Below, one piece after another: positions 14,053 to 19,201 of a DNA stretch of 57,435 bases (position 1 is the stretch's first letter; each line of letters begins with the position of its first letter). Made by a program: the position numbers and the translations under genes. Origin of the DNA: a virus. Taxonomy: Duplodnaviria; Heunggongvirae; Uroviricota; Caudoviricetes. The notes beneath the pieces are model-generated. The model had not been told where the DNA came from, made no database searches, and saw only the letters and a program-made list of their open reading frames with translations. The DNA is taken from the IMG/VR virus record IMGVR_UViG_3300045004_000084. The stretch is one strand, 5' to 3'.

Positions 14053-14592
14053 TCACAGATCAAGCCCCCGTTGCTGTACTTCGTACTCCGTCAAGTCGAC
14101 GTAGTTCTTGAGATACTTCGCTGTTTCCCTGATGACCGCCGGGCTGTGCCACAGAGCGTCGTCGTGTAGACTGCGCCAGCACGCGTCGTCTTCCAGGTAT
14201 GTACGCTTAACCTTGTCGTCGGCCCAGGTTCGCCAGTGGATGATCCACCCCATCTTGAAGTACTCGGTGCCGTCGCTATGCACCACGAACATCTCGATGG
14301 GGAACACCCGGTCGTCTCCGAGCGGCTCGGCCGTTAGGGACTCGATGCGGCGGACCGACAAACTACGATGGATCGTGTGGCCGGCGTCGTTCTTGCGGGG
14401 CTCCAGCTTGAGACCGTCCAGATCCTTCAGTTGGAGGGCAACGGTTTCGTAGGTGTTGCGGAACGCTTGCCACCGCTTGATCTTCTTGAGCTGCGACTCC
14501 TCGCGACTCCTCTGGTGCTCGCGCTTCTGCTCGAGCGCCAGTTTCAGGATTTCGTCCCTGAGCGTGGTGATCGTAACAGATGGGTTGCTCAC
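14053..14592 (-). CDS. Hypothetical protein (179 aa) ending in RGLDL
   Basis: GTG start overlapping the upstream TGA. Confidence 0.7.
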   Translation of the reverse strand: MSNPSVTITTLRDEILKLALEQKREHQRSREESQLKKIKRWQAFRNTYETVALQLKDLDGLKLEPRKNDAGHTIHRSLSVRRIESLTAEPLGDDRVFPIEMFVVHSDGTEYFKMGWIIHWRTWADDKVKRTYLEDDACWRSLHDDALWHSPAVIRETAKYLKNYVDLTEYEVQQRGLDL

Positions 14593-14858
14593 AGGTCGAT
14601 TCCGGGGCGGTTGCCTTCGGGCACGACAGCCGTGTCCTCGGCCCCCTTCGAGGACACCGCCCTCACCGCGATCACAACGCGCCGGTTGGCCCGCTTGGAG
14701 CGGACGAGAGTGGTTTTGCCGCCGTCCTCCTTCGGGTGGGCCTTGATCGCCCGTACCCCGTCCAGGCGGACGGGAATCGCGGTGCCGTCCTCGAGGAGGA
14801 CGTACACCTCGTCGTTGACGTACTTGGCGAGCTTCTTCGACAGGGTCTTCGCTTTCAT
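14589..14858 (-). CDS. Hypothetical basic protein (89 aa) ending in RPGIDL
   Basis: ATGA coupling upstream and GTGA coupling downstream. Confidence 0.7.
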   Translation of the reverse strand: MKAKTLSKKLAKYVNDEVYVLLEDGTAIPVRLDGVRAIKAHPKEDGGKTTLVRSKRANRRVVIAVRAVSSKGAEDTAVVPEGNRPGIDL

Positions 14859-15127
14859 GCCACCGGCTCCGGAAGGTTGTGGTCGATGAGCCACTGGACC
14901 TCGGCGGCCAGGGCATCAACTCGCAGTTTGAACGGTCCGAGCTTCGGCCCACGGCACGGCGCCATGTCCGCGTACCAGACCGTCTCTCCGTCGACCGTCT
15001 CCGGCTCGACGTGTGAGGCCCGCTTGATCGTCGACGAGCCCAGCTCCAAAAGCGGCGCCAGCTCGTCGTAGTAAAGGAAGTGGATCATCCCGTCGGGGGT
15101 GATGTCGATGGTGAAGGTCTGGCTCAT
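14855..15127 (-). CDS. Conserved RASHVEP protein of the planctomycete DUF1257/DUF2997 module
   Basis: LYYDEL..L.ELG...IKRASHVEP...W.ADM.P..GP.LGPF..R..AL.AEV.WL; SD AGGAG. Confidence 0.75.
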   Translation of the reverse strand: MSQTFTIDITPDGMIHFLYYDELAPLLELGSSTIKRASHVEPETVDGETVWYADMAPCRGPKLGPFKLRVDALAAEVQWLIDHNLPEPVA

Positions 15128-15147
15128 CGCAGACTCCTGAAAACGGA

Positions 15148-15172
15148 AGGGCCGCCCAACTCGGGCGGCCCT
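15148..15172 (-). terminator. Probable intrinsic terminator
   Basis: 10-bp stem AGGGCCGCCC/GGGCGGCCCT followed by TCCGTTTT on the minus strand. Confidence 0.55.
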
Positions 15173-15200
15173 CCCTGGCCCCACCTCTCCGCCGCCTCGA

Positions 15201-16309: not shown

Positions 16310-17479
16310 TCACAGGTCGAGGCCGCGCATGAACTGCCCGTAGGCTTCGATGTGCGTGTCCTCGGAGGTAAGGGTCTCCCGGGCGTCCCGCAGGAACTCC
16401 GCGACGGACCGGGCGGCCTCGCGGTTCGCCTGTCCGTTGACGGACTGCGGGTTCACCGCGTTGATCCGGTGGGCGATATGCGACAGCCGGCGCTGCAGGT
16501 CCGGCGTGGTCAGGAACGAGAAGCCCTGCAACTTCGTATACGCCGCCTGGATGTTGGCGATCGTAGCAGGCAGCACGCGGCTGCCACGGCTCAGGATCCC
16601 CTCCATGTTCGCCAGGGATGCGGCGAACTCGTTGAGGGGCTCCTGAATCATCGTACGCACCGCATCGGCGATGGCCCGGCTCGTCGCCTCCCGAGCCTCG
16701 GTTACCCATGCAGCCGACGCGTTCTCGCCCAACAGGGCCGGAGGCGTGTTGGCGACTTCGGTGACCGCCGTGATGAGGGCGGGCATCAGTCGCTGGACCG
16801 CCTCGAAGTCCGCCGTCGACACCGACGGGTTTCGCAGCAGCTCGTTCACCCGCTCTCGAAGGCGGTTGTCGAAGTCGGCCGGGATCCCGCTGCCCAGCGG
16901 CATCAGGATCATGTCGATGGTGTGCCTGGCGACGAACGTGTCGGCGTCCACCAGCCACTTCCGCATCGACAGGTAGAAGGACGTCTGCTCGCGCCGGAGC
17001 TTGTCGACGTGGTCCTCCCACTTCGGCCGGTACTCCTCCGCCTTCTCCCGGTACTCTTGGCGGACGGCGCGGACCGACCCGAACAGCTCGGACGCCGGGT
17101 TGCGGCCACCGGCACCTGTCACCGGGACCAGGTAGGCGCCACCCGGGAAGGGCGTGCCGAACAGGCTCGGCTGCCGCCGGGCCTTATTGGCGATGTAGCT
17201 CATCGCCCGGTTGATGTCCGGCGGAACCAGTCGCCCGGTGGCTCCGGACAGGAGCTCATCGGGGACGGTCTCCCCCTCGACCCTGACCTCGGCCTTCTTG
17301 AGCTTCCGCTCGTAACCCACACCGTGGGCCGAGATCTTCACGGCGACGCAGTTGCGGGCGATCCGCCGCAGGACGCGGGCGGAGTCGATCCGTTCGAGCT
17401 GACTGACGTCGAGTTCGGGCGTTTCAACCGTGACGGTCTGATCGTCGATTCCGGTCCCCACCTCGGCGGTAGTGGACAT
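16310..17479 (-). CDS. DUF3150-like helical protein (389 aa) ending in RGLDL
   Basis: SD GGAG; GGAYLVP motif; position between the AAA ATPase and DUF1257. Family call is tentative. Confidence 0.55.
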   Translation of the reverse strand: MSTTAEVGTGIDDQTVTVETPELDVSQLERIDSARVLRRIARNCVAVKISAHGVGYERKLKKAEVRVEGETVPDELLSGATGRLVPPDINRAMSYIANKARRQPSLFGTPFPGGAYLVPVTGAGGRNPASELFGSVRAVRQEYREKAEEYRPKWEDHVDKLRREQTSFYLSMRKWLVDADTFVARHTIDMILMPLGSGIPADFDNRLRERVNELLRNPSVSTADFEAVQRLMPALITAVTEVANTPPALLGENASAAWVTEAREATSRAIADAVRTMIQEPLNEFAASLANMEGILSRGSRVLPATIANIQAAYTKLQGFSFLTTPDLQRRLSHIAHRINAVNPQSVNGQANREAARSVAEFLRDARETLTSEDTHIEAYGQFMRGLDL

Positions 17480-17544
17480 GTCGTTTCTCCAGAATTATTT
17501 ACTCGCTGGCTCTTCAGCGTAACTGGTTGAACGGTCTTATGGAA

Positions 17545-17568
17545 GGGCCGGGGCGTACGCCCCGGCCC
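17545..17568 (-). terminator. GC-rich hairpin after the AAA ATPase gene
   Basis: GGGCCGGGGC/GCCCCGGCCC stem with GTAC loop; weak U-tract. Confidence 0.45.
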
Positions 17569-17584
17569 GCTGACTGGCCGTTGG

Positions 17585-19201
17585 TCAGTTGTTCTTCGGG
17601 TCGAACGGCAGGTCGAGGTCCAGGGCGCGGCCGCCGCCGTCCTTCGATCCTTTCACCCGGCGGTTGGAAGAGACGCTGCGGGCACGGTCCTTCCCGAACT
17701 TCCGGATCTCCTCGATGTTCTCGGGATCGACCTTCACGACCGGAACGATGTCCTCGAGGGCCGCGACGAGCTGAGTTGCCGTCGGGATGCCACGGCTGGT
17801 CTGATCGGCGCTGTACGCAGTGAATCGGGCCGCCGATATCGCCTGCTCGATCTCCGCTCCGACGTAGTCGCGGCTCTTCGAGACGAGCTGCTTCCAGTCG
17901 TCTTTCCCGTACACCGACGGGTCGATGCGGCGCTTCCGCATGTGGATCTCGAAGATCGCCTTCCGCTCTGCGTCGGTAGGCGTATCGACGAAGAAAATTT
18001 CGTCGAATCGACCCTTGCGGAGCAGCTCCGGCGGCATGCCCTTGATGCGGTTCATGGTGAGCACCACGAACGTCTTGTTTTTCTTCGACGACAGCCAGGT
18101 CAGGAGCTGCCCGAAGACGCGCTTGGTCACGCCGCTGTCGCCGGTGCCGTCGATGGCCCCGCCGAGCACCTTGTCGGCTTCGTCGATGAGCAGCACACAG
18201 CCGCCCAGCGCGTCCGCCGTCTGGATGGTCTCGCGGGTTCGCCGCTCGGACTCGCCCACGAGGCTGTTGAACACGGCGTCGAAGTTGAACGTCACCCGGG
18301 GCAGACGCAGCTCACGGGCGATGACGTCGGCCGCGATCGACTTGCCGGTGCCCGGCACGCCGATCATCACGATGCCCTTCGGGAAGTCCAGCCCCAACGA
18401 TTCGGCCTCGGGCTCGTACGCCACCTTCCGCTCGTTCAGCCACGTCTTGAGCTCGTCGTACCCGCCCAGCTCGTTGCCGCCGATGATGTCCTTCTTCGGG
18501 ACGTAGCTGAGCACCTCGGACTTCTGGAGCAGGCGGCCCTTCTCCATCTCGATGGTGTCGATGATCTCCGGCGTGATTCCGCCGTGGCGGACGATGCATT
18601 CGGCCAGCGCGTCCGAGGCGTCCACGGTCGTCAGGCCCGACAGGGCCGTCGCGATCTGGTACCGGAGCGAGTCCGAGCACTGCTTCTTGGTGGGGTCGGA
18701 GATCGACATCCGCACCCCCTCGAAGATCCCCATCAGGTGCTGGTGGCTCGGCAGCGGGTAGATGAGCTGCTTCATGTACGGCAGCAGGTCCTGGTTCATC
18801 GCCGTGCTCGGCGTGAGCAGGATGACCGGACGGCGGTTCTTCTTCGTGTTGAGCGCCTGCCGCTGGATCAGCCCCTTGATGGCGGAGACGGGGCTTGGAT
18901 TCTGCATCAGCTCGTAGTGCGGGTCCCGCATCATGATGATGGTGTTCTGGTCGAACTGCGCGGGAACCGGGATCGACTCGATCGCCTCGGTCAGGTTGAT
19001 GTGCTTGTCGCTGCCGTTCCATCCGTGGACGCAGTCCCAGACCGCAAAGCTGTACCCGAGCTCCTTCGCGATCTTTTTGAGGGACTCCTCGGCCGCTCCG
19101 TTCTGCCCGCCGACGACCAGTTGGACACACTGTACACCGGCGCGGATGTAAAGGGTGATCTGGTCTTCGACTTCCTTGATGTCCTTGAAATTGTTCGTCA
19201 T
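17585..19201 (-). CDS. AAA+ ATPase, Ycf46-like (inactive N-terminal module plus active AAA domain)
   Basis: Walker A GVPGTGKS, Walker B VLLIDEADK, SRH TMNRIKGMPPELLRKGRFDEIFFVDTP; tail RALDLDLPF. Confidence 0.9.
   Translation of the reverse strand: MTNNFKDIKEVEDQITLYIRAGVQCVQLVVGGQNGAAEESLKKIAKELGYSFAVWDCVHGWNGSDKHINLTEAIESIPVPAQFDQNTIIMMRDPHYELMQNPSPVSAIKGLIQRQALNTKKNRRPVILLTPSTAMNQDLLPYMKQLIYPLPSHQHLMGIFEGVRMSISDPTKKQCSDSLRYQIATALSGLTTVDASDALAECIVRHGGITPEIIDTIEMEKGRLLQKSEVLSYVPKKDIIGGNELGGYDELKTWLNERKVAYEPEAESLGLDFPKGIVMIGVPGTGKSIAADVIARELRLPRVTFNFDAVFNSLVGESERRTRETIQTADALGGCVLLIDEADKVLGGAIDGTGDSGVTKRVFGQLLTWLSSKKNKTFVVLTMNRIKGMPPELLRKGRFDEIFFVDTPTDAERKAIFEIHMRKRRIDPSVYGKDDWKQLVSKSRDYVGAEIEQAISAARFTAYSADQTSRGIPTATQLVAALEDIVPVVKVDPENIEEIRKFGKDRARSVSSNRRVKGSKDGGGRALDLDLPFDPKNN

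Follow-up and report, generated by a model that had tools for sequence, protein, structure and literature searches.

What might a phage gain from carrying an AAA+ ATPase beside proteins of the DUF1257, DUF2997, DUF3150 and RASHVEP families, and do these proteins work as one? The question is raised by a block of genes, all on the minus strand, at positions 14053–19201 of a 57,435-nt stretch of viral DNA (IMG/VR record IMGVR_UViG_3300045004_000084; Caudoviricetes), hereafter the window. An earlier reading, made from the sequence alone, had seen here a complete Ycf46-like module forming a multi-subunit machine—devoted to remodelling, to unfolding or to some membrane-linked task—that benefits a mobile element. 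The answer that we favour, with confidence only a little greater than our doubt, is that the block encodes a soluble remodelling motor resembling the D2 ring of Cdc48, which works with DUF1257/DUF2997 cofactors and acts on or with proteins addressed by a shared C-terminal tail.

Gene content of the block

Seven co-oriented genes occupy positions 14053–19201, the interval that the sequence-only reading had marked out. They are listed here in the direction of transcription, together with two intergenic spacers, a conserved gene upstream and a more distant gene that shares the tail:

19275..20009, minus strand: conserved 244-aa protein, directly upstream of the ATPase and outside the interval first described
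17585..19201, minus strand: AAA+ ATPase, 538 aa (Pfam AAA, E 4e-26)
17480..17584, minus strand: spacer with a 10-bp G+C hairpin, after the ATPase stop codon
16310..17479, minus strand: DUF3150 protein, 389 aa (Pfam PF11348, E 1.5e-11)
15844..16224, minus strand: DUF1257a, 126 aa, Ycf35-like (Pfam PF06868, E 1.9e-7)
15201..15827, minus strand: fusion protein, 208 aa, made up of a DUF1257-like part (DUF1257b, residues 1 to ~143), DUF2997 (residues 150–195) and a disordered tail
15128..15200, minus strand: spacer with a 13-bp G+C hairpin, then UUCCGUUUU
14855..15127, minus strand: RASHVEP-family protein, 90 aa, with an R-A-S-[H/D]-V-E-P core
14589..14858, minus strand: 89-aa tail-tagged protein ending R-P-G-I-D-L, with an ATGA overlap with the preceding stop
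14053..14592, minus strand: 179-aa tail-tagged protein ending Q-R-G-L-D-L, with a GTG start and a GTGA overlap
6352..7011, minus strand: WGR-domain protein, 219 aa, ending V-R-G-L-D-L (Pfam WGR, E 5.6e-18)

Pfam calls were judged against curated gathering cut-offs, and PHROGs, PADLOC and NCBIfam were also scanned. Profile hidden Markov model (HMM) searches, which had been proposed as a check, placed the AAA, DUF3150, DUF1257 and DUF2997 proteins in their families, each above the Pfam cut-off; because these assignments hold, the sequence-only reading survives its own test. The companion check on gene neighbourhood showed the genes kept together in phages and in cells. For that comparison, loci (numbered with the prefix L) were fetched around homologues of the ATPase (41–69% identity) and of the DUF3150 protein, and all their open reading frames (ORFs) were scanned with profiles built from orthologues of the window’s proteins.

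The two last ORFs, described as coupled in the sequence-only reading, begin with ATGA and GTGA overlaps. A membrane-linked role finds no support: the hydropathy of the sequences shows the block proteins as predicted soluble proteins, none of them having a hydrophobic segment (maximum Kyte-Doolittle value in a 19-residue window, 1.38). Across the region, Rfam returned no family and no sigma-70-like promoter was called, and searches of cultured phages by blastn and tblastn with the block DNA, the DUF3150 protein and the fusion protein returned no match.

An ATPase with the motifs of a threading motor

The ATPase scores 92.4 bits against Pfam AAA (PF00004; cut-off 21.2) and belongs over its full length to phrog_8638 (E 6e-110), a PHROG family without annotated function. 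It consists of an N-terminal half without an assigned family (residues ~1–245), one AAA module like that of Cdc48/VAT D2 and a basic C-terminal tail. Among solved structures, the AAA module comes closest to the D2 domains of VAT and p97/Cdc48 (E 6e-53), and CDC48 is the family ranked first by NCBIfam. Homologues are named ‘SpoVK/Ycf46/Vps4 family’ by JGI, and it is on that annotation that the link to Ycf46 rests.

Both Walker motifs are present (A, GVPGTGKS; B, LLIDEADK), and an alignment of 47 homologues shows how closely the motor has been kept: G281, G284, K287, D340, sensor-1 N384, the arginine fingers R395 and R398 and pore-loop G316 are invariant, and E341, L314 and V315 nearly so. The hydrophobic position of the pore loop is Leu here, Phe in Rhodobacter phage RcTiptonus and Tyr in mycobacteriophage Catdawg. 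By the residues that define the class (Walker A and B, sensor-1, two arginine fingers and a pore loop), the protein is assigned to the classical-clade AAA+ ATPases, and a motor so fully conserved, pore loop included, speaks for an enzyme that is active and threads its substrate.

Within the protein’s own family the first 245 residues are conserved, and the N-domain profile also matches Bacillus and planctomycete ATPases. In PDB and profile searches this half matched no double-psi barrel N domain and no D1 ring, and an hhalign match to the protein’s own D2 profile proved to be a boundary artefact; that the N-half is a degenerate D1 ring is a guess. A single-protein scan of viral contigs with the ATPase found nothing.

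PADLOC matched the ATPase to IetA (E 1e-22) and TRIP13 (E 1.4e-6) through the generic AAA core, and gave no match for the six other block proteins. Judged on these searches, the block is to be placed neither in IetAS nor in the TRIP13-HORMA branch of cyclic-oligonucleotide-based antiphage signalling (CBASS), the partner components (the IetS protease; HORMA and cyclase proteins) being unmatched.

A C-terminal tail shared by unrelated proteins

Among the 746 stop-to-stop frames of at least 40 aa in the window, only four end in [R/P]-G-[L/I]-D-L, against 0.005 expected: the DUF3150 protein (whose end reads in full G-Q-F-M-R-G-L-D-L), both downstream ORFs and the WGR protein, which lies 7 kb from the block. 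All four share the coding strand with the ATPase and lie no more than 11 kb from it. The same tail residues are encoded by different codons across the four ORFs, and for this reason selection is taken to act on the tail peptide rather than on a DNA or RNA signal.

The ATPase carries a similar motif, G-R-A-L-D-L-D-L-P-F, in its own flexible C-terminal tail. Of 120 homologues among the matches listed, most close with a basic R-x-hydrophobic-x-hydrophobic motif, placed at the C-terminus or near it, and the Catdawg ATPase ends R-V-L-D-L. The tail is kept in all DUF3150 orthologues; in an exhaustive profile search, 68 of 149 distant DUF3150 representatives fitted a strict [RK]-x-hydrophobic-x-hydrophobic end and many further representatives had variants of the F-R-x-I-R type followed by a short extension. 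The planctomycete version reads R-R-N-I-L-R-R-P-R.

Other genes that flank the ATPase are tagged in the same way, with three extra bearers in L004 and a gene of ~214 aa just upstream of the ATPase in L006, L015 and L016. The orthologue of the 89-aa protein in L004 ends R-P-G-I-Q-L, and the gene in the position of the 179-aa protein in that locus ends R-A-I-D-L. On the opposite strand the pattern was met in only two ORFs among ~2,000 in 22 loci (one of them in the Bacillus locus L009), and both are taken as chance matches.

DUF1257, DUF2997 and DUF3150 partners

DUF1257a matches PF06868 at 31.7 bits (cut-off 22.2) and phrog_20456 (E 3e-9); for both DUF1257 and DUF2997, PHROGs holds small families without annotated function. 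Thirteen orthologues share an invariant N-terminal M-S-H and a D-N-Y-x-G-x-W-G motif. NCBIfam matched residues 8–39 to ‘HxsD-like protein’ below its threshold (25.4 bits, cut-off 41), which may be due to chance. HxsD is a small protein of a radical S-adenosylmethionine (SAM) peptide-maturation system. No Pfam radical-SAM match was found among the block proteins, and the CX3CX2C pattern occurs in the window only in the distant and unrelated ORFs 555–3275 and 35814–36791.

DUF2997 (PF11211) was recognised in residues 150–195 of the 208-aa ORF (53.2 bits, cut-off 24.1, E 2.7e-14), with its G-x-x-G-x-x-C core present and G166, G169 and C172 invariant among 15 orthologues. The sequence-only reading had treated DUF1257b and DUF2997 as separate genes. 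In the window they are one: the candidate DUF2997 start (ATG 15398) is in frame with ATG 15827 and no stop intervenes. In four related loci (L013, L017, L018 and L019) DUF1257b and DUF2997 are separate adjacent genes; the other nine that reach this position all have the fusion, which makes 10 loci with the window.

The sequence-only reading had also spoken of two divergent DUF1257 paralogues, and here its two halves part company. The first is secured by Pfam; the second failed as a sequence-proven paralogue, with no Pfam match to DUF1257 for residues 1 to ~143 even at E ≤ 0.1 and no significant similarity by sequence comparison (BLASTP to DUF1257a, E 2.9; hhalign probability 28%). Its predicted fold tells more. 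When superposed on a structural cluster made up to 89% of DUF1257 proteins, the ESM Atlas model reached a template-modelling (TM) score of 0.77 over 116 residues, and an AlphaFold2 model (predicted local distance difference test, pLDDT, 78) reached 0.74 over 117 residues with a root-mean-square deviation of 3.1; the whole 208-aa chain matches bacterial fused DUF1257-DUF2997 proteins. We therefore call DUF1257b DUF1257-like by modelled fold, not a proven member of the family. The heteromeric complex of two DUF1257 paralogues that the sequence-only reading put forward would thus join proteins whose kinship cannot be seen in their sequences.

Within the fusion model, residues 103–190 form one four-stranded, two-helix unit, to which the DUF1257-like part contributes its last helix and hairpin and DUF2997 its hairpin and helix. 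Since the two parts are fused or split across relatives and make up a single composite domain in the model, we argue that DUF1257b and DUF2997 physically touch.

Residues 186–208 of the fusion protein (window positions 15201–15260) form a disordered tail with a conserved E-Y-x(4-5)-Q-x-[VI]-[KR]-[IV] end. This tail resembles those of ATPases from other lineages (R-A-V-T-I-G and similar), and because of that resemblance DUF2997 may itself be tail-docked.

The DUF3150 protein matches PF11348 over residues 43–216 (44.6 bits, cut-off 24.9). Its AlphaFold2 model (pLDDT 87) combines an N-terminal alpha/beta region with a bundle of four helices at the C-terminal end. In BFVD the model was matched to DUF3150 proteins (E 1.5e-8), and one of the hits comes from Mycobacterium phage Dylan. 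A scan of genome contigs for DUF3150 with phage-derived patterns returned nothing.

The surroundings of two distant DUF3150 representatives were viewed, both on very short contigs. One of these contigs (protein P0219; ENA ERZ24794654, 2.7 kb) encodes a 327-aa DUF3150 protein ending F-L-R-G-I-D-L, with a short AAA gene (367 aa as called, 416 aa at most) directly upstream. Given that neighbour, the pairing of DUF3150 with an AAA protein, and the tail, may not require the long N-half of the ATPase.

RASHVEP is a real conserved family, although one that Pfam does not hold. It has 26 invariant columns among 10 phage orthologues and always follows DUF2997 in phage loci. Neither it nor the two downstream ORFs belong to any Pfam, PHROG, PADLOC or NCBIfam family.

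Conservation in phages and bacteria

The order AAA, DUF3150, DUF1257a, DUF1257b, DUF2997, RASHVEP is kept in all 16 uncultured-phage loci, except at contig ends. The related loci are IMG/VR viral contigs or assemblies of 187–222 kb; the carrier fits a large phage, because those assemblies also have terminase and glycosyltransferase genes. Cultured phages have the module too, in a simpler form. Rhizobium phage RHph_I4 encodes the AAA protein, a 212-aa tail-bearing protein, DUF1257, DUF2997 and a RASHVEP-like gene, and Rhodobacter phage RcTiptonus has a matching gene set, of which only DUF2997 reaches its HMM cut-off. In RHph_I4 the neighbours of the module are replication genes; in L006 and Catdawg they are genes for ligase or Ku/ParB.

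In two more distant loci, candidate DUF1257-like and DUF2997-like genes lie downstream of the ATPase (10130–10441 and 10771–10986 in L007; 12097–12375 and 12732–12947 in L008); they are too diverged for Pfam or for profiles derived from the window.

A scan with the RASHVEP alignment, covering one genome per prokaryotic species, found 211 relatives, and about 71 of the best 80 of these 211 were in Planctomycetota. The ATPase was found in 45 of the 80 RASHVEP loci fetched, most of which also had DUF1257 and DUF2997. An ORF of 250–420 aa stands directly before RASHVEP in 43 of the 80, nearly always ending DRPRRxIL; aligned as a set, these ORFs matched the DUF3150 alignment with an hhalign probability of 98.5% (E 2.7e-15, 281 columns).

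One chromosome, that of Planctomycetales bacterium 10988 (CP043547.1), holds at least four copies of such a cassette (L028, L029, L032 and L044), with the content DUF1257-DUF2997-AAA-DUF3150-like-RASHVEP. Two of the copies, L028 and L029, share 6.2 kb at 94% identity, from which it follows that the cassette rides on a repeated, probably mobile, element. With all five genes present in these multi-copy cassettes of Planctomycetota, the module is a five-component unit of mobile DNA. The host of the phage is probably a planctomycete.

A different arrangement was seen in Bacillus sp. CGMCC 1.16607 (L009; JBHUJX010000004.1), where an ATPase 35% identical to that of the window, with the tail R-N-P-F-I-L, heads an operon encoding a 1129-aa superfamily 1 (SF1) helicase, two proteins of 547 aa and 854 aa without assigned function, DUF2997 and a probable DUF1257. 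This layout looks like a defence island.

Flanking genes and intergenic hairpins

The interval first described, 14053–19201, does hold the core genes, but it leaves out a conserved gene at 19275–20009, upstream of the ATPase, which encodes a 244-aa protein. This gene has the same position in nine related loci, including the distant L007 and L008, in which the block is dispersed. Alignment with its counterparts in L004, L005, L007, L008 and L013–L016 gave 44–66% identity and 42 invariant columns, and a GGAGG motif precedes its ATG at 20009. On these comparisons we count it as part of the block. It belongs to no Pfam or NCBIfam family, and its candidacy as a sliding clamp was accordingly unsupported.

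The spacer after the ATPase (17480–17584) folds as RNA at −43.4 kcal/mol (z −3.9; 0 of 200 shuffles as stable), and that before RASHVEP (15128–15200) at −44 kcal/mol (z −3.1; again 0 of 200). The terminator scan did not call the first of these because it lacks a T-run. A third G+C hairpin was seen in the gap after DUF3150 (16225–16315; z −2.0), and all three are without a proper T-run. The three hairpins may set relative subunit expression or protect the mRNA.

Downstream, a minus-strand run of genes at 6352–11475, which begins with the WGR gene listed above, is related to nucleic acids and nucleotides:

7024–7746, minus strand: NUDIX hydrolase, downstream neighbour
8901–10592, minus strand: GHKL/MORC-like ATPase, downstream neighbour
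10675–11475, minus strand: GP88-family protein, downstream neighbour

A GP88 gene is also found close to the ATPase in L006, L007, L008 and L016.

Proposed mechanism and alternatives

The intact motor motifs, the fused or split state of DUF1257b and DUF2997 and their composite domain make the earlier idea of a multi-subunit machine carried by mobile elements a reasonable one. We suggest that the block would form a single soluble protein-remodelling machine. Its motor would be the AAA+ ATPase, with one active ring like the D2 of Cdc48/p97/VAT and an intact pore loop for gripping substrate. DUF1257 and DUF2997, sharing their composite small alpha+beta domain, and the RASHVEP protein of 80–90 aa would be its constant companions, DUF1257 having apparently been doubled in this lineage and one copy joined to DUF2997. 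The DUF3150 protein would be the main partner or client, bearing the putative address peptide R-x-[LIVM]-[D/E]-[LIVM]-COOH, which would also mark the WGR nucleic-acid-binding protein and two or three small proteins, and which the ATPase tail would imitate.

Such a tail could act as a docking signal that brings its bearers to a shared site on the motor or the cofactors, where the motor would unfold or disassemble the docked proteins, or whatever those proteins hold. The ATPase’s own tail might compete for the docking site or pre-occupy it, and lineage-specific tail-tagged proteins could be extra clients or adaptors. We infer the single complex, the docking role of the tail, the docking place and the benefit to the phage from the observations set out above. 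As to when and on what the machine acts, we guess that it remodels host proteins or proteins bound to DNA in the early or middle phase, because of the WGR, NUDIX, GHKL ATPase and GP88 neighbours here and the replication, ligase, Ku and ParB genes beside the module elsewhere.

Several observations weigh against this proposal. The case for pairwise binding and for a receptor of the tail is indirect, and the tail could serve a host factor instead of the module. Residues 1–245 of the ATPase gave no significant match to a solved chain, alone or as a 28-sequence profile (best Abo1, E 0.52). The best PDB match of the fusion model in Foldseek was RnlA (E 0.012), and a wide VIA-align search rose no higher than the tool’s background level (best Z 8.0, with KA1, AP-2 appendage and spermine-synthase N domains); the DUF3150 model drew only generic four-helix bundles (Z ≤ 9.2) from the PDB, wide VIA-align and the Swiss-Prot AlphaFold database. 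Beyond close relatives, the extra tail-tagged proteins are not conserved. In L007 and L008, whose ATPases are 35–39% identical to that of the window, small unrelated genes lie between the ATPase and the DUF1257-like and DUF2997-like candidates, and DUF3150 was not seen in either locus.

The same indirectness lends some substance to the view that these are merely syntenic early phage genes with separate functions, the tail being a quirk of the lineage without a common reader. A four-chain complex prediction (ATPase residues 1–512, DUF1257a, DUF1257b-DUF2997 and, as the scored partner, DUF3150 residues 255–389) gave an ipSAE of 0.00 against a mark of 0.32, which speaks for neither side, the design being unlike that on which the tool was calibrated, and binding between the components is a matter of deduction. 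We nevertheless give this view very little credence: the core set stays together in phages of Planctomycetota, Rhizobium and Rhodobacter and on bacterial chromosomes despite rearranged order and ATPase identities of 30–35%, two of its members are joined by gene fusion, and the tail is kept at the level of the peptide, with differing codons, family-wide in DUF3150 and the ATPase. A tail with a reader outside the module is a different matter. It might bind a host hub such as the DNA sliding clamp or a different ring, with the ATPase and the tail-bearers recruited separately and the module acting on host replication or repair. Clamp-binding motifs include QL[SD]LF, QLxLxL and the T4 gp45-binding tails, and the tail described here is loosely like such C-terminal peptides; that of the ATPase reads L-D-L-D-L-P-F, one bearer is a WGR nucleic-acid-binding protein, and there are the replication, ligase and Ku/ParB genes that adjoin the module in other phages. 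Yet the tail has a conserved Arg where clamp motifs have Gln, its spacing departs from the canonical penta- or hexapeptide, and the planctomycete form is unlike any clamp motif. The conserved Arg and the very different planctomycete tail weaken the case for a host hub such as the clamp, which we regard as rather improbable; Pfam and NCBIfam scans gave no clamp family for the 244-aa protein, the rest of the window not having been searched for one.

Another suggestion, compatible with the proposed motor mechanism, is that the module serves mobile elements in conflicts: it would counter host defence by stripping or unfolding immune proteins, or exclude rival phages, and tail-tagged proteins would be its swappable target adaptors. 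The module is carried by phages and by multi-copy elements of Planctomycetota (witness the two copies with 6.2 kb in common), its tail-tagged set turns over fast between relatives while the core is stable, the Bacillus locus—ATPase, DUF2997, probable DUF1257, a large SF1 helicase and two large proteins—resembles a defence island, and the WGR and NUDIX neighbours could handle ADP-ribose-based immunity. We still think it unlikely, if not easily dismissed, in that PADLOC matched none of the partners and linked the ATPase to IetA and TRIP13 through its generic AAA core alone, no nuclease, protease or toxin effector is recognisable in the phage block, and the ycf46 and ycf35 relatives are housekeeping or stress genes, not obviously engaged in conflict (PMC13683863, PMC5940233). 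Alternatively, the ATPase might cap a self-compartmentalising DUF1257/DUF2997 enzyme in the style of HslU-HslV or the PAN-proteasome, with tails as pegs and the Ser-His of DUF1257a as a catalytic N-terminus. HslU and the proteasomal ATPases dock their peptidase rings by C-terminal tails, the ATPase tail motif is conserved family-wide, and DUF1257a orthologues share their invariant M-S-H start; against this, DUF1257 is far smaller than an N-terminal nucleophile hydrolase and fold searches returned none, ring formation drew no support from the analysis, and DUF3150 and other non-ATPase proteins bear the tail, as fits clients or cofactors better than pegs. A capped enzyme thus seems very improbable.

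Relation to known systems

The motor with motif-docked cofactors that we favour is best compared with Cdc48/p97/VAT. The phage block has an active ring nearest to VAT/p97 D2, all of the motor motifs, dedicated small partners and a short peptide common to the partners. Cofactors of Cdc48/p97/VAT likewise dock by short motifs, SHP, VIM and VBM on the N domain and PUB/PUL on the C-terminal tail. However, the phage ATPase has one recognisable AAA module and an N-half unlike a psi-barrel or D1, its cofactors (DUF1257, DUF2997, RASHVEP and DUF3150) are unrelated to UBX or Ufd1-Npl4, and its peptide is a C-terminal R-x-hydrophobic-acidic-hydrophobic sequence that is also borne by the ATPase itself. 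The module would work as p97/VAT does with its motif-docked cofactors, without belonging to that system.

Resemblance to other AAA+ systems is more limited. Like HslU-HslV and the PAN/Mpa-proteasome, the phage ATPase has a conserved, flexible C-terminal tail that ends in a basic/hydrophobic motif; unlike them, the block has no recognisable peptidase, and its tail is found on non-ATPase proteins too. In TRIP13-HORMA systems the AAA+ protein is accompanied by small alpha/beta proteins, one or two in number, which bind short ‘closure’ peptides. The combination in the phage of an AAA+ protein, one or two small alpha+beta proteins and a peptide motif on unrelated proteins is alike by analogy only; there is no cyclase or effector in the block, and searches with the DUF1257b-DUF2997 model returned matches at background level and no HORMA.

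With the Ycf46/Ycf35/DUF2997 proteins the module shares the Pfam families DUF1257 and DUF2997 and, judging by the JGI annotation of homologues, probably the family of the ATPase. To these the phage block adds DUF3150, RASHVEP, the tail-tagged proteins and a DUF1257b fused to DUF2997. A duf2997-ycf35-fed7 cluster exists in cyanobacteria (PMC4284462), and in red-algal plastids the loss of ycf35 and that of ycf46 follow one habitat-linked pattern (PMC5940233); together with the planctomycete cassettes, these reports support the association of Ycf46, Ycf35 and DUF2997 from which the sequence-only reading had started. In the literature searched, Ycf46 itself is a KaiC-interacting, stress-induced protein that has been linked to CO2 use and a stress operon, not to the partners found in the block (PMC13683863).

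A search of 8 million full texts found no published description of the phage module, a variant, not described before, of the AAA+ machine that works with cofactors. Adaptor-assisted AAA+ unfoldases are familiar, but the adaptor set of DUF1257, DUF2997, DUF3150 and RASHVEP is one without a described function. The module is also widespread: its carriers include large uncultured phages, the cultured phages of Rhizobium and Rhodobacter named above and multi-copy elements of Planctomycetota, and cyanobacteria and plastids have a simpler form of it as ycf35, probably together with ycf46. The five-residue tail that its partners share makes partner choice testable by removal or transplant, and the cultured carriers RHph_I4 and RcTiptonus make genetics possible.

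A broader idea, which we put forward tentatively and doubt more than we believe, is that Ycf46-type ATPases, together with DUF1257/DUF2997, read the R-x-hydrophobic-x-hydrophobic tail as a general address code, by which any tagged protein becomes a client. If so, phages and planctomycete elements would be tagging their own DNA-binding and other proteins as clients, and the code would explain the roles of ycf46 and ycf35 in plastids and cyanobacteria.

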